Assembly: GCA_022711765.1 (NCBI GenBank)
Contig: JAKLEB010000002.1
Span: 1,120,620 to 1,184,619 of the forward strand
Source: Candidatus Krumholzibacteriota bacterium
Lineage (GTDB): Bacteria > Krumholzibacteriota > Krumholzibacteriia > LZORAL124-64-63
DNA length: 64,000 nucleotides
Reading direction: 5' to 3'
The stretch's first letter is position 1; every line of letters starts with the position of its first letter. Both the position numbers and the translations under genes were made by a program. Positions 8,221-24,512 of the stretch are shown here, piece by piece. The notes below the pieces were generated by a model, which searched no databases, had not been told where the DNA came from, and saw only the letters and a program-made list of their open reading frames with translations.

Positions 8221-9721
8221 GAGGCTCCTTGGCCACGGCCAGGGCCAGCACGTCGGCCTGGCTCGCGGCGCGGGGATCGGGGATCTCGCCGGCGAGGCGA
8301 CCCTCGTGCATCACGAGGATGCGGTCGGCCATGCCGAGCACTTCCGGCAGCTCGCTCGAGATCATCACGACGGCCTTGCCGCGGGCGGCGAGGTCGTTGA
8401 TCAGCTCGTAGATCTCGTACTTGGCGCCGACGTCGATGCCGCGCGTGGGCTCGTCGAAGATCACGACGCGGGCGTCGCGCTCGAGCCAGCGCGCGACGAG
8501 CAGCTTCTGCTGATTGCCGCCCGAGAGCTGGCCGGCGCGCTGGTCGGGGCCGGCGACCTTGATGCGCAGGCGCGCGACGTGGCCGGCGAAGCGGTCGGCC
8601 TCCGTCGTCCGGTCCAGCCAGCCGGCGCGTGACCAGCGGTCGAGGTTGCCGAGCGCGAAGTTCTCGCGGGCGCCGAGGCCGAGCACGAGACCCTGGCCCT
8701 TGCGGTCCTCGGTCAAGAGCGCGATGCCAGCCCGGATCGCGGCGCGCGGCGAGCCCGGCCGGACCGCGCGACCGTCGACGCGCACGGTGCCCGCGCGCGG
8801 GCGGTCGGCGCCGAACACGAGGCGCGCGAGGTCGGTGCGGCCCGCGCCCACGAGGCCGGCGAGGCCGAGCACCTCGCCGGCGCGGACGGTGAAGGTCACC
8901 GGCTTGACGCGGCCGCCGCACAGGCCGTCGACCGCGAGCACGACCTCGCCACGCACGGCCGCGCGCGGGGGGAACTCGCGATCGAGGGGTCGGCCCACCA
9001 TCAGCTCGATGAGCCGGCCGCGGTCCAGCGCGGAGGCGGCCCAGACGCCGAGCAGCTCGCCATCCCGCATCACGGCGATGCGGTCGGCGAGGCGCGCGAC
9101 CTCGTCGAGGCGGTGGCTGATGAACACGAGGCCCAGGCCCTGGGCCTTCAGCTCGCCGAGCACCGCGAACAGGCGCTCGGTCTCGCGGGGCGTGAGGGCC
9201 GCGGTGGGCTCGTCGAGGATCAGGACGCGGGCGTCGGCCAGCAGCGCGCGGGCGATCTCGACGAGCTGGCGGTGGGCGAGGTCGAGCTGGGCGACGGGCA
9301 CGTCGGGGTCGACGTCGCAGCCGAGACGGGCGAGGACCTCGCGAGCGCGCTGGCGTTCTGCGGCGCGGTTGAGCGGACGCAGGAGCCGCGGCTCGCGGCC
9401 GAGGAAGAGGTTGTCGCGCACGGTGAGGCCCGGGACCTGGCTCAGCTCCTGATAGATCACCGCCACGCCGGCGCGGGCCATTTGCGCCGGCGCAAATCCG
9501 GTGAGGTCGCGGCCGTCGATCTCGACCGTGCCCGCGTCCGGCGCGTGCGCGCCCGAGACGACCTTGATGAGCGTGCTCTTGCCCGCGCCGTTCTCGCCGA
9601 CGAGCGCGAGGACCTCGCCAGCGCGGACGTCGAGGTCGGCGCCCGCCACGGCGACCACGCCGGGGAACGTCTTGCGCACGCCGCGCAGGCTCAACAGCGG
9701 GGTGTCAACGGCCGGCGGCAT
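8210..9721 (-). CDS. Sugar ABC transporter ATP-binding protein (tandem NBDs, RbsA-like)
   Basis: ORF in the track, 503 aa. Two Walker A motifs (GENGAGKST; GLVGAGRT) and an LSGGNQQK signature. Confidence 0.8.
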   Translation of the reverse strand: MPPAVDTPLLSLRGVRKTFPGVVAVAGADLDVRAGEVLALVGENGAGKSTLIKVVSGAHAPDAGTVEIDGRDLTGFAPAQMARAGVAVIYQELSQVPGLTVRDNLFLGREPRLLRPLNRAAERQRAREVLARLGCDVDPDVPVAQLDLAHRQLVEIARALLADARVLILDEPTAALTPRETERLFAVLGELKAQGLGLVFISHRLDEVARLADRIAVMRDGELLGVWAASALDRGRLIELMVGRPLDREFPPRAAVRGEVVLAVDGLCGGRVKPVTFTVRAGEVLGLAGLVGAGRTDLARLVFGADRPRAGTVRVDGRAVRPGSPRAAIRAGIALLTEDRKGQGLVLGLGARENFALGNLDRWSRAGWLDRTTEADRFAGHVARLRIKVAGPDQRAGQLSGGNQQKLLVARWLERDARVVIFDEPTRGIDVGAKYEIYELINDLAARGKAVVMISSELPEVLGMADRILVMHEGRLAGEIPDPRAASQADVLALAVAKEPHGA

Positions 9722-10670
9722 CGTCGCCCGCGTAGAGCTGGCAGGGGATGAGCTGCTGCGGGGGCACGGACTGACCGCTGAGGTACGCGGCCACCGCCTC
9801 GATCGTCATGCGGCCGATCTCGCGCGGCTGCTGCACGACGTCGGCGTGGATCTTGCCGGCGTTGATCGCCGCGCGCGCCTCGGGCACCGCATCGAAGCCG
9901 ACGATCACGATCTGGCCGAGCTTGCCCGCCTTCTCGACCGCCGCCAGGGCGCCGAGGGCGCTGTCGTCGTTGATGCCGAAGATCGCGTCGAGACCCGGCT
10001 GCGATTGCAGGATGTCCTCGGCGGTGCGGAAGGCGATGTCCTTCGTGCCGCGGCCGGGCAGCTTGGCGACGATCGTGACGCCGGCGTGCTTCGCGAGCTC
10101 CTCCTCGAAGCCCGCCACGCGCTGGATCACCGACTCGACCTCGGGATGGTCGATGATCGCGACCTCGCCTGAACCGCCGATCGCCTCCACGAGCGCCTGG
10201 GCGGCGAGGCGGCCGCCAGCCACGTTGTCGCTCGCGGTGTGGCAGACGATCTGCGCGTTGTCGGCGAGGACTGCGATGTCCGCGGTGAACACCGGGATGC
10301 CCGCCGCGTTGGCCGCGGTGACCGAGGTGCCGATCGAACGCGAGTCGCAGGGGGAGAGCACGATCGCGTCGACCTTTCGCACGAGGAAGTTCTCGAGCTG
10401 GTCCTTCTGCTTCGCGACGTCGAACTCGCCCGCCTGGACGAGGAGCTGGTAGCCGCGCTCGTTGGCGGCCTGCTGCAGGCCGGCCTCGAGGTCCTGGTAG
10501 AAGGGGTGGGTGCGGGTGAGGAGGGAGACGCCGATCACGGCCGCGGGCGTACCGGGCGCGCGGGGGGTGTCGGCGGACTTGCCGGCGTCGCCGTTGCTGC
10601 TGCAGCCGGCTAGGGCGGTGAGTGCAATCGCGACGACGATTGCTGGTGCCGTGCGCATGGAAGATCGCAT
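9705..10670 (-). CDS. Sugar ABC transporter periplasmic substrate-binding lipoprotein (RbsB-like)
   Basis: ORF in the track, 321 aa. Lipoprotein signal ...ALAGCSSNG. Periplasmic-binding-protein type I fold. Overlaps the ATPase gene start. Confidence 0.75.
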   Translation of the reverse strand: MRSSMRTAPAIVVAIALTALAGCSSNGDAGKSADTPRAPGTPAAVIGVSLLTRTHPFYQDLEAGLQQAANERGYQLLVQAGEFDVAKQKDQLENFLVRKVDAIVLSPCDSRSIGTSVTAANAAGIPVFTADIAVLADNAQIVCHTASDNVAGGRLAAQALVEAIGGSGEVAIIDHPEVESVIQRVAGFEEELAKHAGVTIVAKLPGRGTKDIAFRTAEDILQSQPGLDAIFGINDDSALGALAAVEKAGKLGQIVIVGFDAVPEARAAINAGKIHADVVQQPREIGRMTIEAVAAYLSGQSVPPQQLIPCQLYAGDDAAGR

Positions 10671-10868
10671 CGGGGCCTCCTCGAAATATTACGGTCCGTT
10701 GGCGTCGAACCTAGCATGTCCCGCGAGGCTACTCAACCCGACACCTGAAACCGGGAGTCGCTCAACAGCAACTACACTAGGACCGGCCCGTTCACTTCCC
10801 TTTGGCGGGCGTCAGAGACGAAATCTCCATGTGGACGAGAGTACCTGCCACAGGGGGTGGACGGGCCG

Positions 10869-13474
10869 GTTGTGGGTAGCCTACGGACCCTGATCGGTTA
10901 CACTTTTCCGCCTGGTGTCCACGTCAGTCCTCCAGTTGTGGGTGGCCTACGGACCCTGATCGGTTACACTAGAGGCGCTACCGCGCCGAGTACGGCGAGG
11001 TTGTGGGTGGCCTACGGACCCTGATCGGTTACACTCGGGGGCGCTAGGCGCTGGTCGCCGTACCAGTTGTGGGTGGCCTACGGACCCTGATCGGTTACAC
11101 TGAACGGCCGTCTGCCGAATCAGCACATGCCGTTGTGGGTGGCCTACGGACCCTGATCGGCTACACTCTGACCGCCCCCACTGACACCCCCCAAAGGGTT
11201 GTGGGTGGCCTACGGACCCTGATCGGCTACACTTGTCTGAACAATACCACAATTGCCCAAAAAGTTGTGGGTGGCCTACGGACCCTGATCGGCTACACTC
11301 GTACACCACTTGCTCAATCGTTCTTGCCAGTTGTGGGTAGCCTACGGACCCTGATCGGCTACACTCAGAGTCGCCGCGTCGCTGAATCTCCCCTTGTTGT
11401 GGGTGGCCTACGGACCCTGATCGGCTACACTGCTCGCCGGAGGCTAGGACCGAGAATTGAGGTTGTGGGTGGCCTACGGACCCTGATCGGCCACACTTAT
11501 CACCAAGAAAAGGAGCAAGACGCGACAGTTGTGGGTGGCCTACGGACCCTGATCGGCTACACTGAATCGCTCGCGATACTGCGTGATGGGCTTGTTGTGG
11601 GTGGCCTACGGACCCTGATCGGCTACACTCCTTGGAGCTGATGCCTGGTGAGTCCGTATGTTGTGGGTGGCCTACGGACCCTGATCGGCTACACTCGGCC
11701 GGGCTCACCGTGCGTTTCACGCAGAGTTGTGGGTGGCCTACGGACCCTGATCGGCTACACTTCCGTCGCCTGCAGCGTATGAGGCGGCGCCGTTGTGGGT
11801 GGCCTACGGACCCTGATCGGCTACACTGGATGGTCGGACCGCCAGGTCGTCAAGGTTGTTGTGGGTGGCCTACGGACCCTGATCGGCTACACTGCCGGGG
11901 ACCTGATCCTCACGACCGAAGACGTTGTGGGTGGCCTACGGACCCTGATCGGCTACACTCGGCACGGTGCGGCTGTCGATCTGGCTGAAGTTGTGGGTGG
12001 CCTACGGACCCTGATCGGCTACACTTCGCCGTGCGTTTCTCGAGTAGAGACTTCTGTTGTGGGTGGCCTACGGACCCTGATCGGCTACACTATCGACGAG
12101 GTTCCCCCAGGCGGCGGGATAGTTGTGGGTGGCCTACGGACCCTGATCGGCTACACTGTCGGCCGCTTTGATGAGAATGTCCTGGTAGTTGTGGGTGGCC
12201 TACGGACCCTGATCGGCTACACTCCGCCGCCGCTCGGCCGCGAATCGGGGACTGTTGTGGGTGGCCTACGGACCCTGATCGGCTACACTGGGCGGCGCGG
12301 TGTTCATCTCGACGCCCGAGTTGTGGGTGGCCTACGGACCCTGATCGGCTACACTAGCAGATCCACACGACCACTGGCCTGATGAGTTGTGGGTGGCCTA
12401 CGGACCCTGATCGGCTACACTTGCGCCTGCTTTGCTGGCAGCCGCGCGCTGGTTGTGGGTGGCCTACGGACCCTGATCGGCTACACTTGACAGACCTCCT
12501 AGTCGTCGTGGCTGGTGTTGTGGGTGGCCTACGGACCCTGATCGGTTACACTTCGCACGATGATGCCCTGCGCCCGGCGAAGTTGTGGGTGGCCTACGGA
12601 CCCTGATCGGTTACACTATGCCTCCCTGCATGAGCACCGCGAGCCTGTTGTGGGTGGCCTACGGACCCTGATCGGTTACACTGGCCGTGGAGCTCGACCG
12701 CGTGGCACTCAAGTTGTGGGTGGCCTACGGACCCTGATCGGTTACACTCCTGGCCTCGACGCGGGTAACCCGGTCGCCGTTGTGGGTGGCCTACGGACCC
12801 TGATCGGTTACACTCGTCTACGCGAAATTCTGGACCCCAGGGCAGTTGTGGGTGGCCTACGGACCCTGATCGGTTACACTCGAAGTCGTGCCAGGCATTG
12901 GTGGCGGACAGTTGTGGGTGGCCTACGGACCCTGATCGGTTACACTGCAGCCATCCTCGTGGGTCCATCCAGGGCAGTTGTGGGTGGCCTACGGACCCTG
13001 ATCGGTTACACTTCAACGCGCGGCGGCGATATGCGTCGCGCAGTTGTGGGTGGCCTACGGACCCTGATCGGTTACACTTGTAATCGGAGACGTCAGAAAG
13101 GCTGGGAAGTTGTGGGTGGCCTACGGACCCTGATCGGTTACACTCCGCGGCGACCGAGGCCGTGATCACTCGCAGTTGTGGGTGGCCTACGGACCCTGAT
13201 CGGTTACACTCGCGCACGATCGCGACCGTGCGGTATGGGAGTTGTGGGTGGCCTACGGACCCTGATCGGTTACACTACTGCGCGAGTTCGCTAGCGAGCT
13301 CGGAGAGTTGTGGGTGGCCTACGGACCCTGATCGGTTACACTCAGGCCGATCGCTTCGAGCGGATGCTCACGGTTGTGGGTGGCCTACGGACCCTGATCG
13401 GTTACACTAGACGACAGCCAAAACCGAGAGCGGAGGACGTTGTGGGTGGCCTACGGACCCTGATCGGTTACACT
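10869..13474 (+). CRISPR. CRISPR array with 40 direct repeats of 36 bp and 39 spacers (35 of 30 nt, 4 of 29 nt); type II-C style
   Basis: Repeat consensus GTTGTGGGTGGCCTACGGACCCTGATCGG[T/C]TACACT. Repeats start at 10869, 10935, 11000, 11066 and then mostly every 66 bp up to 13439. There are three blocks of variants: R1-R4 GGTTACACT, R5-R25 GGCTACACT, R26-R40 GGTTACACT. R1 and R8 carry GGGTAGCC; R10 carries GGCCACACT. Strand assignment (plus, toward cas2) follows from the repeat 5'-GTTGTGG start typical of type II repeats, the -10-like TACACT at each repeat 3' end, and the plus-strand tracrRNA. Confidence 0.95.
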
Positions 13475-13475
13475 A

Positions 13476-13515
13476 CCTCCCTCTCAACCGGTTGGATTAC
13501 CACTGGTTGAGAGGG
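13476..13515. terminator. Long hairpin between the last repeat and the cas2 stop, a candidate bidirectional terminator
   Basis: CCCTCTCAACC GGTTGGATTACCACT GGTTGAGAGGG: an 11-bp perfect outer stem plus an inner TGG/CCA stem. Sits 1 nt after repeat 40 and 9 nt from the cas2 stop. No U-tract. Confidence 0.4.
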
Positions 13516-13523
13516 ATCCAGGG

Positions 13524-13853
13524 TCAGAAAAGCTGGATCTGCGAGGGCTGGGATTCTGGTTTCGTCGCGGTTCTGCTGAGGTAGCATTCCATTCTCGCGT
13601 ATTGCTTGTCGGTGAATTTCAGGATCCGCACCTGCCCGTTTGGTGGCATGATGGATTTTACTCGCCCGACGTGGACAGCGGCGTTCTCGTCGCTCGGGCA
13701 CGGTCTCGAATACACCGAGTATTGTAGCATGTCGAACCCGTCCTGGATCAGGGATTTCCGGAATTCCGTCGCAGCCTTGCGCTGAGGCTTCGTGATCACG
13801 GGTAGATCGAACATCACCAGTACCCACATGGCTCTCATCCCGCTCAGTTTCAC
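13524..13853 (-). CDS. cas2: CRISPR-associated endoribonuclease Cas2
   Basis: ORF in the track, 109 aa. N-terminus MKLSGMRAMWVLVMFDLPV resembles the type II Cas2 N-terminus (MSYRYMRMILMFDMP). ATGA overlap with the cas1 stop. Confidence 0.85.
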   Translation of the reverse strand: MKLSGMRAMWVLVMFDLPVITKPQRKAATEFRKSLIQDGFDMLQYSVYSRPCPSDENAAVHVGRVKSIMPPNGQVRILKFTDKQYARMECYLSRTATKPESQPSQIQLF

Positions 13854-14782
13854 GACGGCTGGATCTCCGGTAGTTGGAGTTCCTTCGCCGCGACCGGTGC
13901 CGAGGCTCCGTTCTTGACCTGTTCCTCGATCGCGTGCGCGAGGGAACTTGCGGTCGACTCCAGGGCAACGGCGAGCGAGGTGCTTTCTCCCAGGATGGAT
14001 ACCTCGCGATAGAGCACCCCGATCAACCCCTGCTTGACGTCTTTGTCGATCTCCAGCCTGCCTTGGACCGCGAACTCGCGAACGACCGAGTCGACGACGG
14101 GCCTATACGGCTCCATGACATCGTCGGCGAGGCAGAATCCGCTGTATCTGTTCCGGTGGTGAAGCCCGATCACCGGCTGCAGGCCGGCCATGCAGAGTGC
14201 TCGTGCTGTCGCCGCGCGGAGGACCGCGTAACCGTAGTTCAACAGGTTGTTGGGCGGTGCTCCTTCGCGATGTCGCCGGAACGGATGCTTGGTGATGGCG
14301 GCGCATTCTCGAAACACGAGGGGCCAGTAGATCCGGGAGGCCTGACTCTCGTGAGCGCCGATGTTGCCACTGCGGGTCGTTTCAGCCAGCCTACGTAACG
14401 GGACCGCATCATCGCCCCGCAGCAGAGCCGCCTGGTTGGCGATCTTCGCTCCGACGATCCTAGCCCAGAGGTTCTTCTTGAGAGGCGCCGACATCTCCGA
14501 CTGCAGGCGCACTCGTTCACTGTGCAGAGAGTGCACGTCGAGCGGGATGAACATGCCGCACGGGTGAAACGTCTCGTCGCAGGCGAGGATCGCGCCACCG
14601 GTCTTGCCGAGCGCTGCCATGACGCCGGACGAGATCGAGATCCCGGTCGACTCCAGGACGATGAGACCGAGATCCTCGGCGGGGATGTCCGCGAGAGTCT
14701 CGTCATCACGAGTGATCGTGATCCTGGTATTGCGGAGCGCCAATTGCGTGCCGCGCGTAGCGACCGAGATCGTGCGTTTCAT
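13850..14782 (-). CDS. cas1: CRISPR-associated endonuclease Cas1 (type II)
   Basis: ORF 13850..14806. Start moved to the ATG at 14782 (MKRTISVATRG...), which has a GGAGG ribosome-binding site 6 nt upstream; the 14806 ATG has none. Cas1 fold, adjacent to cas2 and cas9. Confidence 0.85.
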   Translation of the reverse strand: MKRTISVATRGTQLALRNTRITITRDDETLADIPAEDLGLIVLESTGISISSGVMAALGKTGGAILACDETFHPCGMFIPLDVHSLHSERVRLQSEMSAPLKKNLWARIVGAKIANQAALLRGDDAVPLRRLAETTRSGNIGAHESQASRIYWPLVFRECAAITKHPFRRHREGAPPNNLLNYGYAVLRAATARALCMAGLQPVIGLHHRNRYSGFCLADDVMEPYRPVVDSVVREFAVQGRLEIDKDVKQGLIGVLYREVSILGESTSLAVALESTASSLAHAIEEQVKNGASAPVAAKELQLPEIQPS

Positions 14783-14832
14783 GAGGCCTCCAGCCCCTGG
14801 CCCCATGAAGATCGACGCCGGTATTGCCGACT

Positions 14833-17800
14833 TTAATCCCTGGCCTGTCGAATCCTACCGATCGGGTCCACCTGGACCTTCGTAATTGAGTGCTTGCGCC
14901 AGTCTACGAAAGAAGAAATACGTCGGAATGGCTGCTTGTTTCCATGAGTGGCCGGTCGACTGTCTCGACAATCACGAATTGTGATATCGAACCGGCTAGA
15001 GGGTGTTGGCTCGCCGGTTAATTTCTGGACTACTCCTATGATACGTTCTCCCGTGACGGGGTTTACGATCCAGACCGACTCTTTCCGCGCCAGCGACATC
15101 ACGAACACCTTCCCCCCTCCGTGATCTCGATTTACCGCGGGAAGCCCCTGTCGACGGACCCGATCGGCCGCAGCCATGGTCGAGACTGCAGTAGCCCACA
15201 TGGCCCTGGGTGCGCCCTGGTCGTCGGTCTCTGCGGAGGCGACGATCTCGAGATGATGGTTGTTGCCCAGGATCGCGAACCGGTGTTTCAGCTGACGCGC
15301 GTTCTTGATGGCGACCTCGATCCTGACTTTCCGAATCGGGATGCCGTTCGCCATGAGGATCGGCTCGGCGTGCCAATTCTTGGGCAGCGTGTTGCTCTGG
15401 CCATCCCAGCCATGGATGCGCAAGCGATCCTCGATCAAGCGACGACACGTGTCATCGCGGATCGTGGCGATGTTCGACCCAGTGAGCGTATCGAGCCGTT
15501 TTCGCGTGACGTAGCGGTCAGCAGCGATCTCGCCGTCACGATTGCGGGCAGGCCCATAGAAGGTCTCTTCGTGGAACGCGCCGCTGATCTTCCGCAGGGC
15601 TCGGTGTGAGACCGTTATGCGCGACGCGAGGTCGCGCGCCGTATCGCGTAACGTGTCCCAAGGAACCGGGAACGGGGGCCGGCCCGGCTCTGGGTGGTGA
15701 TCGCGAGATTTCCAGTAATCCTGATATCTCTTTAGAAGCGCTCGCGAGGAGAGGGCGATCACCAAGGCGTCGATCGCGTGGTGTCGGTGGTCATCACGAG
15801 ACTTGTAGGGTTTTCCATCGTCGTCGACGCGATCCGAAAGGAGCGGTTCACCCTTGGCGTCGTACAGGTCCGGCAGGATGTTGTTCAAGCCCCACTGTCG
15901 CCTCAATTCGGCGGTCAAGCCGCCGCGGCACGACTGGATGGCCTTTTCGCCAGTGCGCAACTCCGGCGGGAAGAGCAATGACAAGTACTCCACGACGGCT
16001 CGCGTGAGATAACGCGTATCGTTGAGCTGGCGGGCCGCGAAATCCTCGGTGTCGAGTTCGGCGCGTTTGAGGCGTTCGAACTTTCCACGTGAAAGCGCAC
16101 CGGAGTGCTGCAGGCCGGCTGCCCGCCGCAGGAGTTGACGGAAAGCCTCGGAACTCTCGCCGAGCCACTCCATCGGCGTCCTGTCGCCCTTCTCCTTGTT
16201 GGCGAGTCGATGGACGAGCACCTTGTTCGCCTGCGAGTCGTCGAGACTGCGCCACCGCGGTAGGATGTGGTCGATCTCCCACTCGCCGCCCGCGAACAAT
16301 TCGGAAACAGGGATCGGCTGGCCGGTATAGAGGCAGTGCCGCCCCTGTTCCTCCCAGATCAGCCACCGATTCACGTCATCGCGACTTCGCGGGTTGCCGC
16401 CAAACTCGGCCACACGGCTCGCCGCCTCTTCGCGCACCCGTTCCCGGTCCCTGAGCGTCTTGGCCTCTTCGCGTCGCCGTTCCGCGCCGTCCTTCATATC
16501 CCGGGCGAGCTCGACGACGATCCTGGCCGGGCAACCGTGTTCTCGGATCAGCGCATTCACGACCTTGCGTACTTCGACCAATGCGCGACGAACGACGGGG
16601 TTCGTGAGATTCTCGAGATCGGTCGGCAGATCGCTCGACGACAACGGCGGCAGCGTCGCGAAACGCGAACTCCCGGGCCGTTGCGGGTAGGCTTTCTGGA
16701 TCGCCTCGAATTCGTCCAACCCGTCGGCGAGGAGCGGCATCAACTTCCGAATCGCTTCGAGCGAATAGCCCAGATAGCCGTCGGCCGGGGTCCACCGGAC
16801 GAGTTTCTCGATCGATTCCGGTTCGACACCGAGGCCTTGCAGAACAGCGATGAGGTCTGTCGGATCATCCGCCTGGACGAGGTGGTCGCGCAAACGCTGT
16901 CGCGTTTGCTCGGCGACCTTTCGCCAGGCCGGGCGGCCAACCGTGGTCGCGAGCTTGTGTTCCACGGAGTTGCCGAGCAACGCCGACCGCCCGCCGCGCT
17001 CCAGGTTGAACTGTGCGTCGGGGTCGACGCCGGTCTTGGCCAGGGCTTTGCGGATGTCGTCGAATTTCACGCGGTCCTTCGACATGAGAAGATCGAGAAC
17101 GACCTGTCGCTCGCCCGCGGTGAGCACCCGCTCGCGCCCGAGGTGCTCACTCACGCGGAGGTTCGCAGTCTCCTTGTGGATGCGAAACTGTTGGGCCTCC
17201 CAGAGCCCTCGCGGGCAGCAGTACTGGCCGGGCTCCAACGGGCATAATCGTACCGACGGCGCGCGATGCAGATTGGCGCGTGATGGCGCGGCCAACCGCC
17301 TCTCTTCCGTCACCTCGAACGGGTGCTGGAAGAAGATCGTGTGACGCAACCGCGACACGAGTGGAGCGGATAGCAGATCCGGATGGCACGTCTGCTGGCG
17401 GGCGACGATCGCTTCGAACTCGGCAAGGTACATGTCTCGCCGCGTGTGGCGATTTCGCAGCCGCGGCTGGTCGACAGGACCGGTGCCTCGTGCGAGGGTG
17501 TGGAGGTACTCACCGAGGGATCGGCAGCCAGAATCCTTGATCGCACGTTCGAGCACGCCGATCTCCTCGAGGATCCCCTCATCCTCTTTCGCCTTCCCAC
17601 TCTTGCGGTTGGACTGGAAGCCCCGGCGCTGGCCAAGGTGGAAAACTGCGCGACCGATCTCGTACGGCTCGAGATCTTCCGTCAACGCGCGTGCACGCAG
17701 TTCGTACGGATCGCTTCGAAAAAGGTCTTCGAGCAACTTGTCATCGACAGGCAGAAGCCCGCCTTCTCGCAACTGCGCCTTCAGGCGGTTACGACGGGCA

Positions 17801-18042
17801 TTCCGCCGCGCGTGGTTCCGCCGCATGCATCTCGCAGTCCGCCGAGACTGGTTGAGAGACATCTCCTTCGCGGTCCCGAAATTGTGCAATCCCGCCTCGA
17901 ATACCCGGACGCCCAAGGGGGGATGGCCAGCACTGTCGGTGTCGGCGAAACCTACAGGCTCAAACGAATTCGGGTTGGCTTCGAGCATCGCCCAACCGAC
18001 GGAGTTCGGCCCGAGATCAAGCCCGAGGATGTACGCTTTCAT
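14833..18042 (-). CDS. cas9: Cas9 (type II-C, 1069 aa)
   Basis: ORF in the track. RuvC-I ILGLDLGPNSVGWAML. Arginine-rich bridge helix RRTARCMRRNHARRNARRNRLK. HNH EIDHILPRWRSLDDSQANKVLV. RuvC-III HHAIDALVIA. GGGGAGGA ribosome-binding site 8 nt upstream of the ATG. Compact size and cas9-cas1-cas2 with no csn2 or cas4 fit type II-C. Confidence 0.95.
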   Translation of the reverse strand: MKAYILGLDLGPNSVGWAMLEANPNSFEPVGFADTDSAGHPPLGVRVFEAGLHNFGTAKEMSLNQSRRTARCMRRNHARRNARRNRLKAQLREGGLLPVDDKLLEDLFRSDPYELRARALTEDLEPYEIGRAVFHLGQRRGFQSNRKSGKAKEDEGILEEIGVLERAIKDSGCRSLGEYLHTLARGTGPVDQPRLRNRHTRRDMYLAEFEAIVARQQTCHPDLLSAPLVSRLRHTIFFQHPFEVTEERRLAAPSRANLHRAPSVRLCPLEPGQYCCPRGLWEAQQFRIHKETANLRVSEHLGRERVLTAGERQVVLDLLMSKDRVKFDDIRKALAKTGVDPDAQFNLERGGRSALLGNSVEHKLATTVGRPAWRKVAEQTRQRLRDHLVQADDPTDLIAVLQGLGVEPESIEKLVRWTPADGYLGYSLEAIRKLMPLLADGLDEFEAIQKAYPQRPGSSRFATLPPLSSSDLPTDLENLTNPVVRRALVEVRKVVNALIREHGCPARIVVELARDMKDGAERRREEAKTLRDRERVREEAASRVAEFGGNPRSRDDVNRWLIWEEQGRHCLYTGQPIPVSELFAGGEWEIDHILPRWRSLDDSQANKVLVHRLANKEKGDRTPMEWLGESSEAFRQLLRRAAGLQHSGALSRGKFERLKRAELDTEDFAARQLNDTRYLTRAVVEYLSLLFPPELRTGEKAIQSCRGGLTAELRRQWGLNNILPDLYDAKGEPLLSDRVDDDGKPYKSRDDHRHHAIDALVIALSSRALLKRYQDYWKSRDHHPEPGRPPFPVPWDTLRDTARDLASRITVSHRALRKISGAFHEETFYGPARNRDGEIAADRYVTRKRLDTLTGSNIATIRDDTCRRLIEDRLRIHGWDGQSNTLPKNWHAEPILMANGIPIRKVRIEVAIKNARQLKHRFAILGNNHHLEIVASAETDDQGAPRAMWATAVSTMAAADRVRRQGLPAVNRDHGGGKVFVMSLARKESVWIVNPVTGERIIGVVQKLTGEPTPSSRFDITIRDCRDSRPATHGNKQPFRRISSFVDWRKHSITKVQVDPIGRIRQARD

Positions 18043-18098
18043 TTGGATGATCCTCCCCAGAAGTCACCGATCGGCCCCAACTCAAGCAGCATACTATC

Positions 18099-18127
18099 TT
18101 GACAATGCGAAATCCAGCCCCTAAGCT
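18099..18127 (+). promoter_or_regulatory. Sigma70-like promoter of the predicted tracrRNA
   Basis: -35 TTGACA (18099-18104), 17-nt spacer, -10 TAAGCT (18122-18127). The predicted transcription start at ~18134 coincides with the first base of the anti-repeat. Confidence 0.55.
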
Positions 18128-18133
18128 GTCACC

Positions 18134-18230
18134 AGTGTAACCGATCAGGGTCTGTGGTCCCATCCATACCAAGGACTCAGATCCGCAGGCTCTGCGGCTC
18201 GGCTTCGGCCGAGCCGCAACCGTTTCCGGG
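18134..18230 (+). ncRNA. tracrRNA: Predicted tracrRNA, divergent from cas9
   Basis: 18134-18152 AGTGTAACCGATCAGGGTC is a 19/19 match to the reverse complement of the repeat 3' half (T-type). Complementarity to the repeat 5' half continues imperfectly, with G-U wobbles, through ~18170. Two GC hairpins follow: CCGCAG-GCT-CTGCGG at 18183-18197, and GCTCGGC-TTCG-GCCGAGC (UUCG tetraloop) at 18197-18214. Lies in the 200-bp gap between the GH92 stop and the cas9 start. Confidence 0.65.
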
Positions 18231-18244
18231 AGGTCCGCACCGCG

Positions 18245-20611
18245 CTACCGCGACATCGAGTACGGCGCCGCCGCGTCGCCTGTCGCCCGCCCCCGATCCG
18301 CCTCCGCACCCATCACGAACCGCAACGTTCCGCCCCGCGCGACCTCCTCGTGCGTGATCCAGTTCCGCTCGAGCGCGACGCCATTCAACGAGACTTCCCG
18401 CACGTACATGTTCGCCGCCCCCTGGTTCTCCGCGACCACCGTGAACGTCCGCCCGCCCGGAAGCGCGATCTCCGCCCGCCGCACGCACGGGCTGCCGAGC
18501 ACGTACTGGTCGCTCCCCGGCGCCACGGGGTAGAAGCCGAGTGCGCTGAAGATGTACCACGCCGACATCTGCCCGCAGTCGTCGTTGCCGCATAGCCCGT
18601 CCGGCGCCGGCCGGTACATCGTGTCCAGGATCTCGCGCACCCGCGCCTGCGTCCGCCACGGCCGCTCGATGAACGCGTCGAGGTACGGCACGTGGTGGCT
18701 CGGCTCGTTGCCGTGGACGTAGTTGCCGATCATCCCCGCGCGCGTGATGTCCTCGTTCGCGGCGAAGGTCTCGTCCGCGACCTGCATCACGAACAGCGTG
18801 TCGAGCCAGGCGGCGAGGCGCTCGCGGCCGCCGATCAGCTCTGCGAAGCCGGCCACATCGTGCGGCACATACAGCGAGTAGTTCCAGGCGTTGCCCTCGA
18901 TGTAGCCCTGGCCGTGCGTGTCGAGCGGATCGAACCCCGCGGGGAACGACCCGTCGGCGTTGCGCGCGCGCAGGAAGCCGCTCGACGGATCCCACAGCGC
19001 GCGCCACGACCCGGCGCGGCGATCGTACTCCGCCGCCACGTCGGCGCGCCCCAGCGACTCCGCCATCCGCGCGATCGTCCAGTCGTCGAACGCGTACTCG
19101 AGGGTCTGCGAGGCCGCGTAGCGGCTGCTGTCGGCCGGCACCCAGCCGAGGCGGCGGTACGCGCCGAGGCCGTCGTAGCGGTCGTAGGTGGCGCTCGCCA
19201 GCATCGCGTCGAGCGCCTCCGCGGGGTCGAAGCCGCGCACGCCCTTGACCCAGGCGTCCGCGATCACCGGCACCGCGTGGTAGCCGATCATGCACCAGTT
19301 CTCGGCGCCGTGATGGGACCACACCGGCAGGATGCCGTGCACGCTCTCGCGCCGGTGGGCGAGCATCGACTGCACGAAGTCGCCCGTGCGGGCCGGTTGC
19401 AGGAGCGTGAGCAACGGGTGCAACGCGCGGTAGGTGTCCCACAGCGAGAAGATCGTGTGGTTCGTATAGCCCTCGGCGCGGTGCACGTTCTGGTCGAGGC
19501 CGCGGTACTGGCCATCGACATCGCTCCAGACGACCGGGCCCAGGTGACAGTGGTAGAGCGCGGTGTAGAAGTTGACGAGGCCCGCGGGGTCGGCCTCGAC
19601 CACGATCGCGCCGAGCGCCCGGTCCCAGGCCGCGGCGGTCCGCCGGCGCGCGCCGTCGAAGTCCCAGCCGGGGGCCTCGGCGGCGAGGTTCGCGAGCGCG
19701 CCCGCCGTGCTCGTGCCAGAGAGCGCTACCTTCACGAGGATCTGCTCGCCGGCCTCGGTCGCGAAGTCGAAATGGCATTTCACGCGCCGGCCGGCGCGCT
19801 CCGGGAATCCGCGGTCCTCGTCGAACTTGCGCCAGAAGCCGCGGTAGACGATCGGCTCCTCGTTGCGTAGGCCGAAGGACGCAACCGGCTTGCTGAACGC
19901 GATCGCGAAGTAGAGCGTGCGCGTCCGCGCCCAGCCGCTCGTCTGCCGCGAGCCGGTGAGCAACGTGTCGTTCTCCATGCGCACGTACGACCACACGGTC
20001 TTGCCGGGGTAGTCGTAGATGTTCGACGTGAGGTCGAGGATCAGGTGAGCCTCGTCGGTGGCCGGGAACGTGTAGCGGTGCAGGCCGACCCGCTCGGTCG
20101 CCGTCAGCTCGGCCTCGATGTCGTGGTCGAGCAGCGTGACGCGATAGTAGCCGGGACTCGCCGACTCCTGCGCGTGCGAGAAGCGCGAGCGGTAGCCGAG
20201 GTCGGGCTGCGCGGCGGGGCCCGGTTCGAGCACGAGGTCGCCGATCGTGGGGGCGATGAGCAGGTCGCCGAGGTCGCTGTGGCCGGTGCCGTTGAAGTGG
20301 GTGTGGGCGAACCCCACGATCGTCGAGTCGCCGTACTGGTAGCCGCTGCAGTACCGGTACGCGGCCGCGTTGTAGCCCTCGCCGAGGCTGTAGGGTACGA
20401 TGTCGGTCTCCGGGCTGAGCTGCACGAGCCCGAACGGCGCCGTGGCGCCGGGATACGTGTGGCCCATCTCGGCGGTCCCGATGAACGGATCGACGAGGTC
20501 GCGCGGCGCCGGCGCCGGCTCCTCGGCGAACGCGATCGCGGCAGCCAGGCCGAGCGCGGTGATGAGCGAGGAACGTCCACCCCGGCGCCGACCGTTCGCG
20601 GGTCCGTGCAT
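18245..20611 (-). CDS. GH92 family alpha-1,2-mannosidase (secreted)
   Basis: ORF in the track, 788 aa. Signal peptide. GH92 hallmark GNEPSHHVPYL. Confidence 0.85.
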   Translation of the reverse strand: MHGPANGRRRGGRSSLITALGLAAAIAFAEEPAPAPRDLVDPFIGTAEMGHTYPGATAPFGLVQLSPETDIVPYSLGEGYNAAAYRYCSGYQYGDSTIVGFAHTHFNGTGHSDLGDLLIAPTIGDLVLEPGPAAQPDLGYRSRFSHAQESASPGYYRVTLLDHDIEAELTATERVGLHRYTFPATDEAHLILDLTSNIYDYPGKTVWSYVRMENDTLLTGSRQTSGWARTRTLYFAIAFSKPVASFGLRNEEPIVYRGFWRKFDEDRGFPERAGRRVKCHFDFATEAGEQILVKVALSGTSTAGALANLAAEAPGWDFDGARRRTAAAWDRALGAIVVEADPAGLVNFYTALYHCHLGPVVWSDVDGQYRGLDQNVHRAEGYTNHTIFSLWDTYRALHPLLTLLQPARTGDFVQSMLAHRRESVHGILPVWSHHGAENWCMIGYHAVPVIADAWVKGVRGFDPAEALDAMLASATYDRYDGLGAYRRLGWVPADSSRYAASQTLEYAFDDWTIARMAESLGRADVAAEYDRRAGSWRALWDPSSGFLRARNADGSFPAGFDPLDTHGQGYIEGNAWNYSLYVPHDVAGFAELIGGRERLAAWLDTLFVMQVADETFAANEDITRAGMIGNYVHGNEPSHHVPYLDAFIERPWRTQARVREILDTMYRPAPDGLCGNDDCGQMSAWYIFSALGFYPVAPGSDQYVLGSPCVRRAEIALPGGRTFTVVAENQGAANMYVREVSLNGVALERNWITHEEVARGGTLRFVMGAEADRGRATGDAAAPYSMSR

Positions 20612-20690
20612 GTCGCCTCCTGGAGCGGCCGCGCGCGCACGCCGCCGCGAGAGTAGAGGATCGCGCCTCGTGCCCCGGGGGACCGTAGCA

Positions 20691-21833
20691 ATGGAGCGCC
20701 TGCATTACAACGGCCGGGACTATCGCCTCGAGCGCCGGCCGCCGGTGCGCGACCAGGCGCTGCGCGCCTGGGACGCCGCCGACGAGTACCTGCTCGCCGA
20801 GCTGCCGGCGCCGGCCGGCCGCACGCTGCTCGTCAACGACGCGTTCGGCGCCCTCGCCGTGGCCCTGTGCGACCGCCGGCCTGTCCTGTGGAGCGACTCG
20901 CACCTCGCGCGGCTCGCTCTGCGGGACAACCTCGCCCGCAACGGCCTCTCGCCGGACGCGGTCGCCTTCGTGCCGGCCGACGAGGCGCCGGCCGGGCCGT
21001 TCGACGTGGTCGCGGCGAAGTTCCCGAAGTCGCTCGCGTTCTGGGAGGACATGCTGCTGCGCCTGCGGCCGCTCCTGCACGACGGGTCGCAGGTGCTCGC
21101 CGGCGGCATGATCAAGCACACGCCCGCCCGCGCGTATCGCCTGATGGAGACGATCCTGGGCGAGACCCGCACGAGCCTCGGCCGGAAGAAGGCCCGCCTC
21201 GCCGTCGCCCGCCTCGATCCTGACCGCGCCCTGCCCGACCGCCTTGCCGACACGGAGTACCCGCTACCGGGCACGGACCTCACGTTGCGCAATGGGCCGA
21301 ACGTCTTCGCGCGCGAGCACCTGGACGTCGGCACGCGCTGCCTGCTCGCGCACCTGCCGGCCGCCGCGGGCGAGCTGCGCGCCGCCGACCTCGGCTGCGG
21401 CAACGGCGCGGTGAGCCTCGCCCTCGCGGCGCGCAATCCGCGTGCCGAGATCCTCGGCGTCGACGAGTCGTACCAGGCGGTCGCCTGCGCGCGCGCGAAC
21501 GCGGAGCGCGCGGGGCTCGACCCGGCACGGGTCGCGTTCGCGGTCGGCGACGGGCTGGAGGACACGGCGGCCGACTCGCTCGACCTGGTCGTGGTGAACC
21601 CGCCGTTTCACCAGGCGCAGGCCCTCGGCGACGTGGTCGCCTGGTCGATGTTCATGCACGCGCGACGGACCCTGTGCGATGGCGGCCGGCTGCTCGTGGT
21701 CGGCAACCGCCACCTCGGCTACGGCGCGAAGCTCGCGCGGCTCTTCGGCAACTGCCGGACGTTGGCGACAGAGCCGAAGTTCGTGGTGCTCGAGGCGGTG
21801 CGGCGGTTCGGCGAAGGGGCCGACATGCTATAA
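20691..21833 (+). CDS. rlmG: 23S rRNA (guanine-N2)-methyltransferase, RlmG/RsmC family
   Basis: ORF 20400..21833. Start placed at the ATG at 20691 (MERLHYNGRDY). Tandem methyltransferase domains with VVNPPFH and GCGNG motifs. Confidence 0.6.
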   Translation: MERLHYNGRDYRLERRPPVRDQALRAWDAADEYLLAELPAPAGRTLLVNDAFGALAVALCDRRPVLWSDSHLARLALRDNLARNGLSPDAVAFVPADEAPAGPFDVVAAKFPKSLAFWEDMLLRLRPLLHDGSQVLAGGMIKHTPARAYRLMETILGETRTSLGRKKARLAVARLDPDRALPDRLADTEYPLPGTDLTLRNGPNVFAREHLDVGTRCLLAHLPAAAGELRAADLGCGNGAVSLALAARNPRAEILGVDESYQAVACARANAERAGLDPARVAFAVGDGLEDTAADSLDLVVVNPPFHQAQALGDVVAWSMFMHARRTLCDGGRLLVVGNRHLGYGAKLARLFGNCRTLATEPKFVVLEAVRRFGEGADML

Positions 21834-21869
21834 TGGGCGGAAAGCGATTCCACGAGCCGGAGGTCGCCC

Positions 21870-24512
21870 ATGATCCGCCCGTCCCGCCGCCAGCGCCTGG
21901 CCGTCACGGCCGCGATCCTCGCCACCGTCGCGGTCGTCGTGATCCGCGACCGCCTCGTTTCGCCCGAGGGGACGGACGTCTTCGTCCCGCAGGAAGGAAC
22001 GCGGTGGTCGCGCCTGCCCGGCGACGGCAAGCCGGTGCGCGAGCCGAACCAGAGGTTCTTCACCGAGCGCGCCTGGCCGCAGATGTCGATCCCCCTCGAC
22101 GTCTGGCGCGCCGCGCAGCTGCAGGCTCGCGCGCTGGCCGACGACTTCGCCGCGGCTCACGAGCGCGACGTCACGACAGGGTGGGCTCCGCGCGGTCCCA
22201 CCAACGTCGGCGGCCGCATCACGGACCTCGCCGTCGACCCGCGCGACCAGGCCGTGGTCTACGCCGGCGCGGCCGAGGGCGGGCTCATGCGCACGCACGA
22301 CGCCGGCCAGCACTGGGACCTCGTGTTCGACGACCAGCCCTCGCTCGCGGTCGGCGCGGTCGCGCTGGACCCCGTCAACCCGGACATCGTCTACGTCGGC
22401 ACCGGCGAGGTGAACCCTGGCGGCGGCAGCGTGGCGTACGGCGGCACGGGCATCTACCGGTCGCTCGACCAGGGCGACACCTGGACCGGGCTCGGCCTCG
22501 AGAACTGCGGCTCGATCGGCCGCATCGTGATCGATCCGGCCAATCCCGACCGCATCTACGCGGCCGCGATGGGCAATCTCTGGGCGCCGGGGCCCGACCG
22601 CGGCGTCTACCGCAGCACGGACGGCGGCGCGACGTGGGATCTCGCCCTGTACCTCGGCGACACGATCGGCTGCGTCGACCTCGTCATCCGTCCCGACAAC
22701 CCGTGGATCATCCTGGCCGCGATGTGGCAGCGCATCCGCACGCCCGAGCGCTACGACTACGGCGGTCCGGGCTGCTCGATCTGGCGCACCGACGACGGCG
22801 GCAACACCTGGGGACAGGTGACCGGGTCGCTGCCGACGCCACAGGTGAACTCCGGGCGCATCGGGCTCGCGCTCTGTCAGGCCCAGCCCAACCGCATGTA
22901 CGCCGTCTACGCCGACCGCACCGGCTACTTCGCCGGTCTCTTCCGCAGCGACAACGGCGGCGCGAACTGGGCGCCGACCAATGACGACGCGCTCGCCTCG
23001 GTGTTCGCGAGCTACGGCTGGTGGTTCGGCAACGTCCGCTGCCATCCGGACAACCCGGACGTCGTCTTCGTGCTCGGCCTCGAATTCTACCGGTCCACGA
23101 ACGGCGGCGCGAGCTGGTCCTTGGCGAGCAGCGGCGTGCACGTCGATCACCACGCGATGGCCTGGGGCCCCGCGCCGGCCCGTGTCCTCTACGAGGGGAG
23201 CGACGGCGGCGTCTATCGCTCCACGAACGGCGGCACGGTCTGGACGATGTTGCCCGACCAGCCCATCACCCAGGTCTACCGCCTCGGGCTCGATGCGCAG
23301 AACCCCGACGCCATCTACCTCGGCGGCCAGGACATCTCGACCGTGCGCACCCTCACCGGGGCGCTCGACGACTGGACGACGATCCTCGGCGGCGACGGCT
23401 TCCAGCCGCTCGTCCACCCGCTCCTGAGCAGCCGCATCTGGGCGCAGTACCAGTACGGCGCGGTCTACTACTCGAGCAACGGCGGCAGCACGTTCAGCTG
23501 GGCCGGCAACGGCATCGGCAGCGCCGACCGCATCGCCTGGAACGCGCCCCACGCGCAGGACCCGACCATCGCCGACCGCCGCTACTTCGGCACCAACAAG
23601 CTGTACCGCAACAGCGGCCCCACGGGCTGGGCCCCGATCAGCGGCGACCTCACCGGCGGCCCGCATCAGGGCCAGGGCGGGCAGGTCGACGGCACGCTGA
23701 CCACGATCGGCGTGTCCGCGCAGGACCCGGACGTGATCTGGACCGGCAGCGACGACGGCCGCGTCCACGTGACCACCAGCGGCGGCCTCGCCTGGACCGA
23801 CGTCTCGGCCGGCCTGCCCGAGCGCTGGATCACGAGCGTGCGGGCCGATCCCTTCGACCGCGAGACGGCGTACGTGACGGTGAGCGGATTCCGCTGGGAC
23901 GAGCCGCTCCCGCACGTCCTCATGACGGACGACCTCGGCCTGACGTGGTCCCCGATCGCCGGCAACCTGCCCGAGGCGCCGGTCAACGATCTGCTCGCCT
24001 GTCCGGAGCGTCCGGGGCTCCTGTTCGTGGCGACCGACCTCGGCGTGTACCAGACGACCCAGGGCGGGTCGGTCTGGAGCCTCGTGGCCGACGGTCTACC
24101 CAACGTGGTCGTCACCCACCTGGCCTGGAACGCCGCGCGCGACGAGCTCCTCGCCGGCACCTACGGCCGCAGCGTCTACGCGGTGGCGGTAGTCGATCCC
24201 ACGCCCGCGCCCGACCAGGTCGACCTCGCTGCCCTGGGCCGCCTGCGTCCGGCGTTCCCGAATCCCGCGAGCGGCGGCACCATGTTCGCCTGGGACCTCG
24301 CTCGCGGGGGCGAGGTCACGGTCGAGGTCTTCACCGTGAGCGGGCGGCGCGTGTGGCAGGCCGGCGCCGGCGGCCGCGCCGCGGGTCCGGGCTCGCTGTT
24401 CTGGGACGGCCGCGACGGCGGCGGCCGGCCCGCCGCCGCGGGGGTGTACCTCGCGCGCGTCCTGGTCGACGGCCGCGTGCTCGGTCGCGAGACCGTGGTG
24501 CTCGCGAGGTAG
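21870..24512 (+). CDS. Secreted BNR/sortilin-type beta-propeller repeat protein with a T9SS/FlgD-Ig-like C-terminal domain
   Basis: ORF in the track, 880 aa. GGAGG ribosome-binding site. Repeated SxDxGxTW BNR motifs. C-terminus PAFPNPASGG...VEVFTVSGRRV...GVYLARVLVDGRVLGRETVVLAR. Confidence 0.7.
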   Translation: MIRPSRRQRLAVTAAILATVAVVVIRDRLVSPEGTDVFVPQEGTRWSRLPGDGKPVREPNQRFFTERAWPQMSIPLDVWRAAQLQARALADDFAAAHERDVTTGWAPRGPTNVGGRITDLAVDPRDQAVVYAGAAEGGLMRTHDAGQHWDLVFDDQPSLAVGAVALDPVNPDIVYVGTGEVNPGGGSVAYGGTGIYRSLDQGDTWTGLGLENCGSIGRIVIDPANPDRIYAAAMGNLWAPGPDRGVYRSTDGGATWDLALYLGDTIGCVDLVIRPDNPWIILAAMWQRIRTPERYDYGGPGCSIWRTDDGGNTWGQVTGSLPTPQVNSGRIGLALCQAQPNRMYAVYADRTGYFAGLFRSDNGGANWAPTNDDALASVFASYGWWFGNVRCHPDNPDVVFVLGLEFYRSTNGGASWSLASSGVHVDHHAMAWGPAPARVLYEGSDGGVYRSTNGGTVWTMLPDQPITQVYRLGLDAQNPDAIYLGGQDISTVRTLTGALDDWTTILGGDGFQPLVHPLLSSRIWAQYQYGAVYYSSNGGSTFSWAGNGIGSADRIAWNAPHAQDPTIADRRYFGTNKLYRNSGPTGWAPISGDLTGGPHQGQGGQVDGTLTTIGVSAQDPDVIWTGSDDGRVHVTTSGGLAWTDVSAGLPERWITSVRADPFDRETAYVTVSGFRWDEPLPHVLMTDDLGLTWSPIAGNLPEAPVNDLLACPERPGLLFVATDLGVYQTTQGGSVWSLVADGLPNVVVTHLAWNAARDELLAGTYGRSVYAVAVVDPTPAPDQVDLAALGRLRPAFPNPASGGTMFAWDLARGGEVTVEVFTVSGRRVWQAGAGGRAAGPGSLFWDGRDGGGRPAAAGVYLARVLVDGRVLGRETVVLAR

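Follow-up and report, generated by a model that had tools for sequence, protein, structure and literature searches.

A type II-C CRISPR-Cas9 locus in an uncultivated high-GC bacterium, with an array probably transcribed toward cas2 from promoters in its repeats

In Neisseria meningitidis and Campylobacter jejuni, the CRISPR arrays are transcribed in the direction opposite to the cas operon (PMC3737331). Each repeat of C. jejuni ends in GGTAAAAT, and the primary transcripts begin at spacer position 5 (PMC3656092). In N. meningitidis the promoters are likewise embedded in the repeats and transcription starts at the 6th spacer nucleotide, the last repeat being the one next to the leader (PMC12477760); a review also covers the -10 box within each repeat (PMC5965381). 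In a survey covering over 650 II-C systems, spacer entry was reported at the last repeat and a promoter in each repeat, with a mutated first repeat in 60% of the arrays, and it was proposed that a helix upstream of the first repeat suppresses extraneous crRNA (PMC12080349).

The window analyzed here, a 64,000-nt stretch of a Candidatus Krumholzibacteriota genome, contains a CRISPR array followed by three cas genes:

10869-13474, crRNA sense strand assigned as plus: CRISPR array of 40 repeats of 36 nt and 39 spacers of 29-30 nt
13524-13853, minus strand: cas2 (TIGR01573, E = 3e-22)
13850-14806, minus strand: cas1 of type II (NMENI; TIGR03639, E = 2e-64)
14833-18042, minus strand: cas9, 1069 aa (full-length match to TIGR01865, E = 4e-179)

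The cas gene set consists of cas9, cas1 and cas2, with neither csn2 nor cas4, and the locus is therefore of type II-C; the compact Cas9, which matches TIGR01865 over its full length, is also typical of this subtype. Against solved structures, the best E-value of this Cas9 is 1e-66, covering its N-terminal two thirds, which indicates a distant relation. Judging from their PDB codes, the closest of these structures include what we take to be the 1082-aa Neisseria-type II-C Cas9. The neighboring genes encode a GH92 glycosidase and a sugar ABC-transporter binding protein, and the GC content of the locus is 61-64% compared to about 70-75% for the genome. The named relatives of this Cas9 are all from Krumholzibacteriia MAGs, at ~63% identity, and a JGI metagenome contig (L163) from a near-identical strain has an array identical in its 40 repeats and 39 spacers but for a single spacer SNP. 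An Rfam scan of positions 9000-22000 at E <= 1 gave no match. By gene content the locus is an ordinary type II-C CRISPR-Cas9 system, and its host is uncultivated and rich in GC. For comparison, 160 related loci were fetched via Cas9, together with some closer ones.

The locus resembles the N. meningitidis II-C system (Zhang et al. 2013, via PMC5965381 and PMC12477760) in having cas9-cas1-cas2 only, 36-nt repeats and ~30-nt spacers, in an array that lies after cas2 and is very probably transcribed toward it, in acquisition apparently at the leader-adjacent last repeat, and in a -10 box, here a predicted one, formed by the final bases of the repeats. It differs in the box itself, which is GG(T/C)TACACT here, with half of an extended -10 element present, and TGCTACAAT in Neisseria, as well as in its uncultivated, GC-rich host and its distant Cas9. 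C. jejuni (Dugar et al. 2013, PMC3656092) provides a second parallel: its array is also oriented opposite to the cas genes and its repeats also end in GG followed by TAnnnT (GGTAAAAT there, GGTTACACT here), and its crRNAs were started from each repeat, as is predicted here; sequence and host differ. We consider it probable (roughly 0.72) that this is a type II-C array read toward cas2 from -10 promoters in the individual repeats and ended by a hairpin, and the evidence for the parts of this reading is presented below.

The strand of the crRNA was assigned from the tracrRNA, for which two features were recognized:

18099-18127, plus strand: predicted tracrRNA promoter, read from the sequence as TTGACA (18099-18104), a 17-nt spacing and TAAGCT (18122-18127)
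18134 to ~18227, plus strand: tracrRNA, consisting of the anti-repeat (18134-18166), an AAGG nexus-like stretch, a GC hairpin (18194-18217) and then AACCGTTTCC

The anti-repeat is the sole one of the window and lies 92 nt upstream of the cas9 start, and its complementarity extends through the 3' end of the repeat (AGTGTAACC). The TAAGCT box ends 7 nt ahead of it, placing the predicted tracrRNA start at ~18134, and the terminal hairpin has a perfect stem of 10 bp. The sequence-only reading had held that this tracrRNA is complementary only to plus-strand crRNA. Complementarity by itself cannot fix the strand, because it exists between anti-repeat and array for both strand pairs; the plus strand is instead indicated by the promoter and the structured tail, both of which accompany the anti-repeat on that strand alone. 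Compared with shuffled sequences, the tracrRNA region folds well on the plus strand (z = -4.3) and poorly on the minus strand (z = -1.5), where the alternative transcript would run directly into cas9. This anatomy, an anti-repeat followed by a structured 3' tail as in other II-C tracrRNAs, is conserved: in the 61 relatives with a clear anti-repeat, it lies on the strand opposite to cas9, 0-100 nt upstream of the gene, hairpins come after it, and a canonical GC hairpin with a T-run occurs within 130 nt of it in 37 of 61 on that strand, compared to none of the 61 on the same strand as cas9. L161, a relative at 86% identity, retains the -35 TTGACA and the 17-nt spacing, while its -10 reads TATTGT in place of TAAGCT, still a TAnnnT, and its two substitutions in the tracrRNA result in G.U pairs on the plus strand only.

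With the tracrRNA on the plus strand, the crRNAs would also be plus-strand, running toward cas2 and opposite to the cas operon, and we hold this orientation, which the sequence-only reading had also proposed, with little doubt. CRISPR finders by default suggest the reverse, with the array read on the minus strand as an extension of the cas9-cas1-cas2 transcript; this has in its favor that the array lies directly downstream of cas2 and that a decayed repeat is usually taken as the far end of an array. It is nevertheless very improbable here. A minus-strand crRNA needs a minus-strand tracrRNA, which would have to be the poorly folding transcript ~90 nt before the cas9 start, for which none of the 61 relatives has a terminator, and a strong hairpin separates cas2 from the array. 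Furthermore, repeat decay gives the wrong orientation for II-C arrays, as experiments on N. meningitidis and C. jejuni have demonstrated (PMC3737331).

Read on the plus strand, all 40 repeats open with GTTGTGG, in agreement with the sequence-only reading, and all but one close with TACACT at repeat positions 31-36. This hexamer follows GG(T/C), so that a G is placed at -14 of a promoter of which TACACT would be the -10 element; relative to the extended -10 motif (TGn), the G at -14 is present and the T at -15 is absent. At repeat position 30, repeats 5-25 have C and the others (1-4 and 26-40) have T, and G10A occurs in repeats 1 and 8. Two of the boxes are given as examples:

13469-13474, plus strand: TACACT, the -10-like hexamer of repeat 40, at the 3' end of the repeat and supported by the family logo
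11492-11497, plus strand: CACACT, the -10-like box of repeat 10 (11462-11497), the sole repeat lacking the T at -12

The earlier statement that TACACT lies in every repeat thus applies to 39 of 40. Its description as -10-like is borne out by the family pattern below, although TACAAT, with which it had been compared as the consensus, is the Neisseria repeat box, the sigma-70 consensus being TATAAT. The CACACT of repeat 10 would be a natural promoter-down variant, with a weaker start predicted for spacer 10. At the -35 position this repeat is weak (TGGCCT or GTGGCC, 3 of 6 matches), and a promoter here would therefore lean mainly on the -10 box. A sigma-70 consensus scan of positions 10000-19000 returned no sigma-70-type site and one unrelated terminator-like site, at a -10 threshold that passes over TAnnnT boxes such as TAAGCT and TACACT; the promoter preferences of this lineage may differ from the consensus. 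A comparison of purine content at spacer positions 5-11 was uninformative.

Within the window, the recurrence of TACACT counts as one event, because the repeats are copies of each other. We therefore compared 76 distinct 36-nt repeats from arrays of the related Cas9 loci. These arrays are all downstream of cas2, and their repeats, when read opposite to cas9, have the form G(T/C)T...TAnnnT. The terminal hexamer is TAnnnT in 73 of the 76 (37 of 40 after clustering at 80% identity), while TAnnnT occurs at any other repeat offset in at most 2 of 76 and at the antisense end in none. By position, the end of the repeat is composed as follows:

Repeat position 29 (promoter -14): G in 57 of 76
Repeat position 31 (promoter -12): T in 75 of 76
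Repeat position 32 (promoter -11): A in 76 of 76
Repeat position 33 (promoter -10): varies freely
Repeat position 34 (promoter -9): A in 73 of 76
Repeat position 35 (promoter -8): varies freely
Repeat position 36 (promoter -7): T in 73 of 76

Positions fixed at -12, -11, -9 and -7, with a G at -14, are the signature of a sigma-70 -10 element, and base pairing alone would not be expected to give this pattern of fixed and free positions. A TTGnnn at repeat positions 9-14, 16 nt before the box, is found in many of the relatives, if not most, and is a perfect TTGACA in four; the mean -35 match at the 16-nt spacing (3.36 of 6) far exceeds that at every other offset. In the closest clade (L161, L164, L165, L167 and L168; 62-86% Cas9 identity), TTACACT is kept in all repeats. 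The likeness to the repeat-embedded promoters of N. meningitidis, which the sequence-only reading had pointed out, is supported by this family-wide TAnAnT, present in 73 of the 76 related repeats, along with the G at -14, and by the published experiments in N. meningitidis and C. jejuni. We therefore regard active per-repeat promoters as probable at this array. The 7-9 nt into the spacer first suggested for the starts do not match the model organisms, where starts have been mapped to spacer position 5-6.

The main rival is that the plus-strand array is read from one promoter upstream of repeat 1 into a long pre-crRNA that RNase III cuts with the help of tracrRNA, and that TACACT is kept for pairing or for recognition by Cas1-Cas2. 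Several features are in line with it: pairing with the anti-repeat extends through the 3' end of the repeat (AGTGTAACC), which meets the 5' end of the tracrRNA; TACACT lies on the side of the repeat turned toward the acquisition leader, where the integrase acts; a single TACACT is present ahead of repeat 1; and the -35 region of this repeat is weak. Part of the conservation of the repeat 3' end could indeed stem from tracrRNA pairing or integrase action. However, any sequence that covaries would be enough for pairing, whereas the repeats hold T, A, A and T fixed at -12, -11, -9 and -7 while positions 33 and 35 drift, with a G at -14. The opposite end of the repeat has no mirrored pattern, so that symmetric recognition by the integrase fails to explain the box. 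In both organisms tested, starts map inside the spacers (PMC3656092, PMC12477760), and helices such as the one upstream of repeat 1 have been proposed to suppress read-in and not to promote it. A single upstream promoter is thus disfavored by the pattern of fixed and free positions, and we consider it unlikely.

We next turn to the polarity of the array, which was taken from repeat decay, shared spacers being absent. Of 54 complete arrays from related loci, 50 have a perfect repeat next to cas2, whereas about 24 have 1-5 mismatches in the distal one; in this array repeat 40 is perfect as well. Such polarity agrees with the published entry of spacers at the last repeat (PMC12080349), and identifies repeat 1, as read from the sequence, as the oldest ('extra') repeat and repeat 40 as the newest. 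No spacers are shared between related arrays except in one duplicate contig, and L163 was dropped as polarity evidence since its array is identical but for one SNP. Searches for protospacers, meant to yield a PAM and thereby a separate test of orientation, were negative: the two newest spacers had no match among viral contigs, the whole array had none in a phage collection, and all spacers compared with the window and the fetched loci gave 15-nt chance matches only.

The cas-distal end carries a further structure:

10784-10868, plus strand: long helix of 85 nt adjoining repeat 1 on the cas-distal side (fold z = -2.65)

Both this helix, which covers the stretch just upstream of repeat 1, and the mutation of the oldest repeat within its first 15 nt (G10A) are shared with II-C arrays that suppress extraneous crRNA (Feussner et al. 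2025, PMC12080349). By analogy, we propose that the helix would sequester the pseudo-guide of an extraneous crRNA. In C. jejuni, by comparison, a canonical terminator upstream of the array was the element tested (PMC12080349), unlike the long helix here. Positions 10744-10779 were considered as a decayed repeat and rejected, with 8 of 36 matches. Also on this side, 90 nt before repeat 1, is a lone TACACT (10773-10778).

At the other end of the array, the interval to cas2 is short and highly structured:

13475-13523, plus strand: 49-nt leader from the last repeat to the cas2 stop, a hairpin almost throughout, with AA at +12/+13 (13486-13487)

The long hairpin noted after repeat 40 in the sequence-only reading is real: 13478-13492 pairs with 13502-13516, and the leader folds at -30.1 kcal/mol (z = -4.5) on the plus strand and at -26.1 kcal/mol (z = -4.4) on the minus strand, on which one G.U pair is replaced by A.C. 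The arrangement also recurs among relatives. About 40 of 71 non-redundant relatives have 48-50 nt between cas2 and the repeat, and the leader AA at +12/+13 is nearly invariant (36 and 35 of 41, respectively), being retained even in leaders with a weak helix. Structure with z <= -3 was found in 25 of 71 of the 49-nt flanks, compared to 1 of 44 distal flanks and none of 71 coding controls, and the closest relatives preserve the helix via compensatory changes. In 47 aligned leaders, a 12-pair helix was paired in 65% of cells compared to 57% in shuffles (0 of 500 reaching this value) and at most 50% when the partners were slid, the helix having been drawn from the fold of this window, which favors the unslid version. 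The covariation score was 0.284, against 0.18 in shuffles, and RNAalifold gave no consensus structure on the same 47 leaders.

The hairpin had also been proposed to stop read-through into cas2 antisense, which is plausible from the sequences, given the covariation and the T-runs that some relatives have on the crRNA strand. In this window, however, no T-run follows the hairpin on either strand, and it does not qualify as an intrinsic (Rho-independent) terminator; it may still act like one. T-runs after the stem occur in 10 of 30 related hairpins on the crRNA strand and in 5 of 30 on the other strand, with the strongest cases (L044, L052 and L115) all on the crRNA strand, and wobble pairs modestly favor the same strand in the well-paired subset (16 vs. 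5) but not overall (44 vs. 39).

These data bear equally on a different view of the hairpin, in which 13478-13516 is mainly not an array terminator, and acts as a terminator or 3' stabilizer of the cas mRNA or as a DNA or leader element positioning Cas1-Cas2. The hairpin starts 8 nt past the cas2 stop and folds on the minus strand too, the overall wobble counts are without strand bias, and the fixed 48-50 nt with an AA kept in the absence of a strong helix resembles a spacing or sequence signal. Against this, the T-runs are mostly on the crRNA strand and the helix in this window is more stable on the plus strand; the roles are, moreover, compatible with each other. We regard such a function as a serious possibility, albeit a less than even one, alongside termination of the array transcript. 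More tentatively still, we suggest that a large II-C clade shares the fixed 48-50-nt leader with a conserved hairpin, whose CGnAA/UUnCG core puts the AA at +12/+13 counted from the repeat, and which could both end the two convergent transcripts and set the register of Cas1-Cas2 integration at the last repeat. No description of a conserved cas2-side leader hairpin was found in the II-C literature compared; it is absent from the report on extraneous crRNA suppression (PMC12080349), which is confined to the cas-distal side.

Taken together, the favored reading, of transcription from each repeat toward cas2, would operate as follows. The tracrRNA would be transcribed divergently from cas9 on the plus strand, and the array would be read on that strand too, toward cas2 and beginning from the old end away from the cas genes. 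At each repeat, the terminal TACACT with its G at -14 would act as the -10 element, and RNA polymerase, by analogy with the two model organisms, would start ~5-7 nt into the spacer. This would yield a short crRNA precursor with a ~24-nt guide followed by the next repeat, again as in the model organisms, and the tracrRNA would pair with this downstream repeat, after which RNase III could trim the 3' end. Insertion of new spacers would occur at repeat 40, beside the 49-nt leader, whose hairpin would presumably end the last crRNA transcript and thereby separate the convergent array and cas transcripts.

This layout of per-repeat promoters is an established II-C design, already demonstrated in Neisseria and Campylobacter, and not new; the locus itself adds little beyond the II-C systems of that type. 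The comparative result is more useful. Approximately 90 arrays from very different phyla carry TAnAnT with a G at -14, frequently accompanied by a TTG box 16 nt ahead of the hexamer, and this signature argues for per-repeat promoters as a general trait of this Cas9 clade, including in bacteria of 70% GC. It also provides an orientation rule for such arrays, namely that the repeat is to be read so that it ends in TAnnnT, pointing at cas2. The conserved, fixed-length hairpin on the cas2 side of the leader is the sole item here that may be new, and is a candidate handle on where transcription of II-C arrays ends and where spacers are taken up.

Most of the related type II-C repeats have, at positions 9-14, a -35-like TTGnnn box separated by 16 nt from the downstream -10 box (for example in loci L030, L036, L079, and L113), and in four related repeats it is a perfect TTGACA. 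As these repeats carry both boxes, the entire predicted promoter would be contained within the repeat. The repeat in the window has TGGCCT where most of its relatives have TTGnnn. Other elements within and beside the array and the tracrRNA are as follows:

10773-10778: lone TACACT, 90 nt upstream of repeat 1
10784-10868: long helix, its 3' edge abutting repeat 1 exactly
11132-12487: repeats 5-25, the C-form block
13475-13523: leader hairpin stretch, with an equivalent stretch in the related loci L002-L168
18245-20611, minus strand: GH92 glycosidase gene, convergent with the tracrRNA

Repeat position 30 varies in blocks, being T in repeats 1-4, C in repeats 5-25, and T again in repeats 26-40, a pattern expected if the terminal repeat was copied serially and underwent one change and a later reversal. 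The C form produces an A.C mismatch against the tracrRNA 5' end (AGTGTAACC).

On the cas2 side of the array, about 40 of the 71 related II-C loci share a constant spacing of 48-50 nt between the cas2 stop and the last repeat. AA at leader positions +12/+13 is near-invariant. Conservation of the leader hairpin is accompanied by covariation; the II-C leader/ecrRNA paper (PMC12080349) makes no mention of this hairpin. In L161, an 86%-identical relative, the leader is followed at 14569-14647 by a single repeat and then 43 nt, with no second repeat, up to the contig end; either the array has just one repeat or the assembly broke off there.

At the opposite end, the arms of the long helix (CCGGCCCGTTCAC... 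paired with ...GGGGGTGGACGGGCCG) lie beside repeat 1, which carries G10A, and the helix fits the "guide-sequestering" proposed to silence extraneous crRNA in II-C arrays. The lone TACACT, which has the same sequence as the box in the repeats, may be a chance occurrence or a read-in promoter; a decayed repeat ending there was ruled out (8/36 matches over the 36 nt).

The tracrRNA terminal hairpin, separated by about 30 nt from the GH92 glycosidase stop (18194-18245), may serve as a two-way terminator shared with that gene. Because GC content is 61-64% in the CRISPR-Cas locus (10001-18000) vs. 70-75% elsewhere in the window, base composition suggests that the locus was horizontally acquired.
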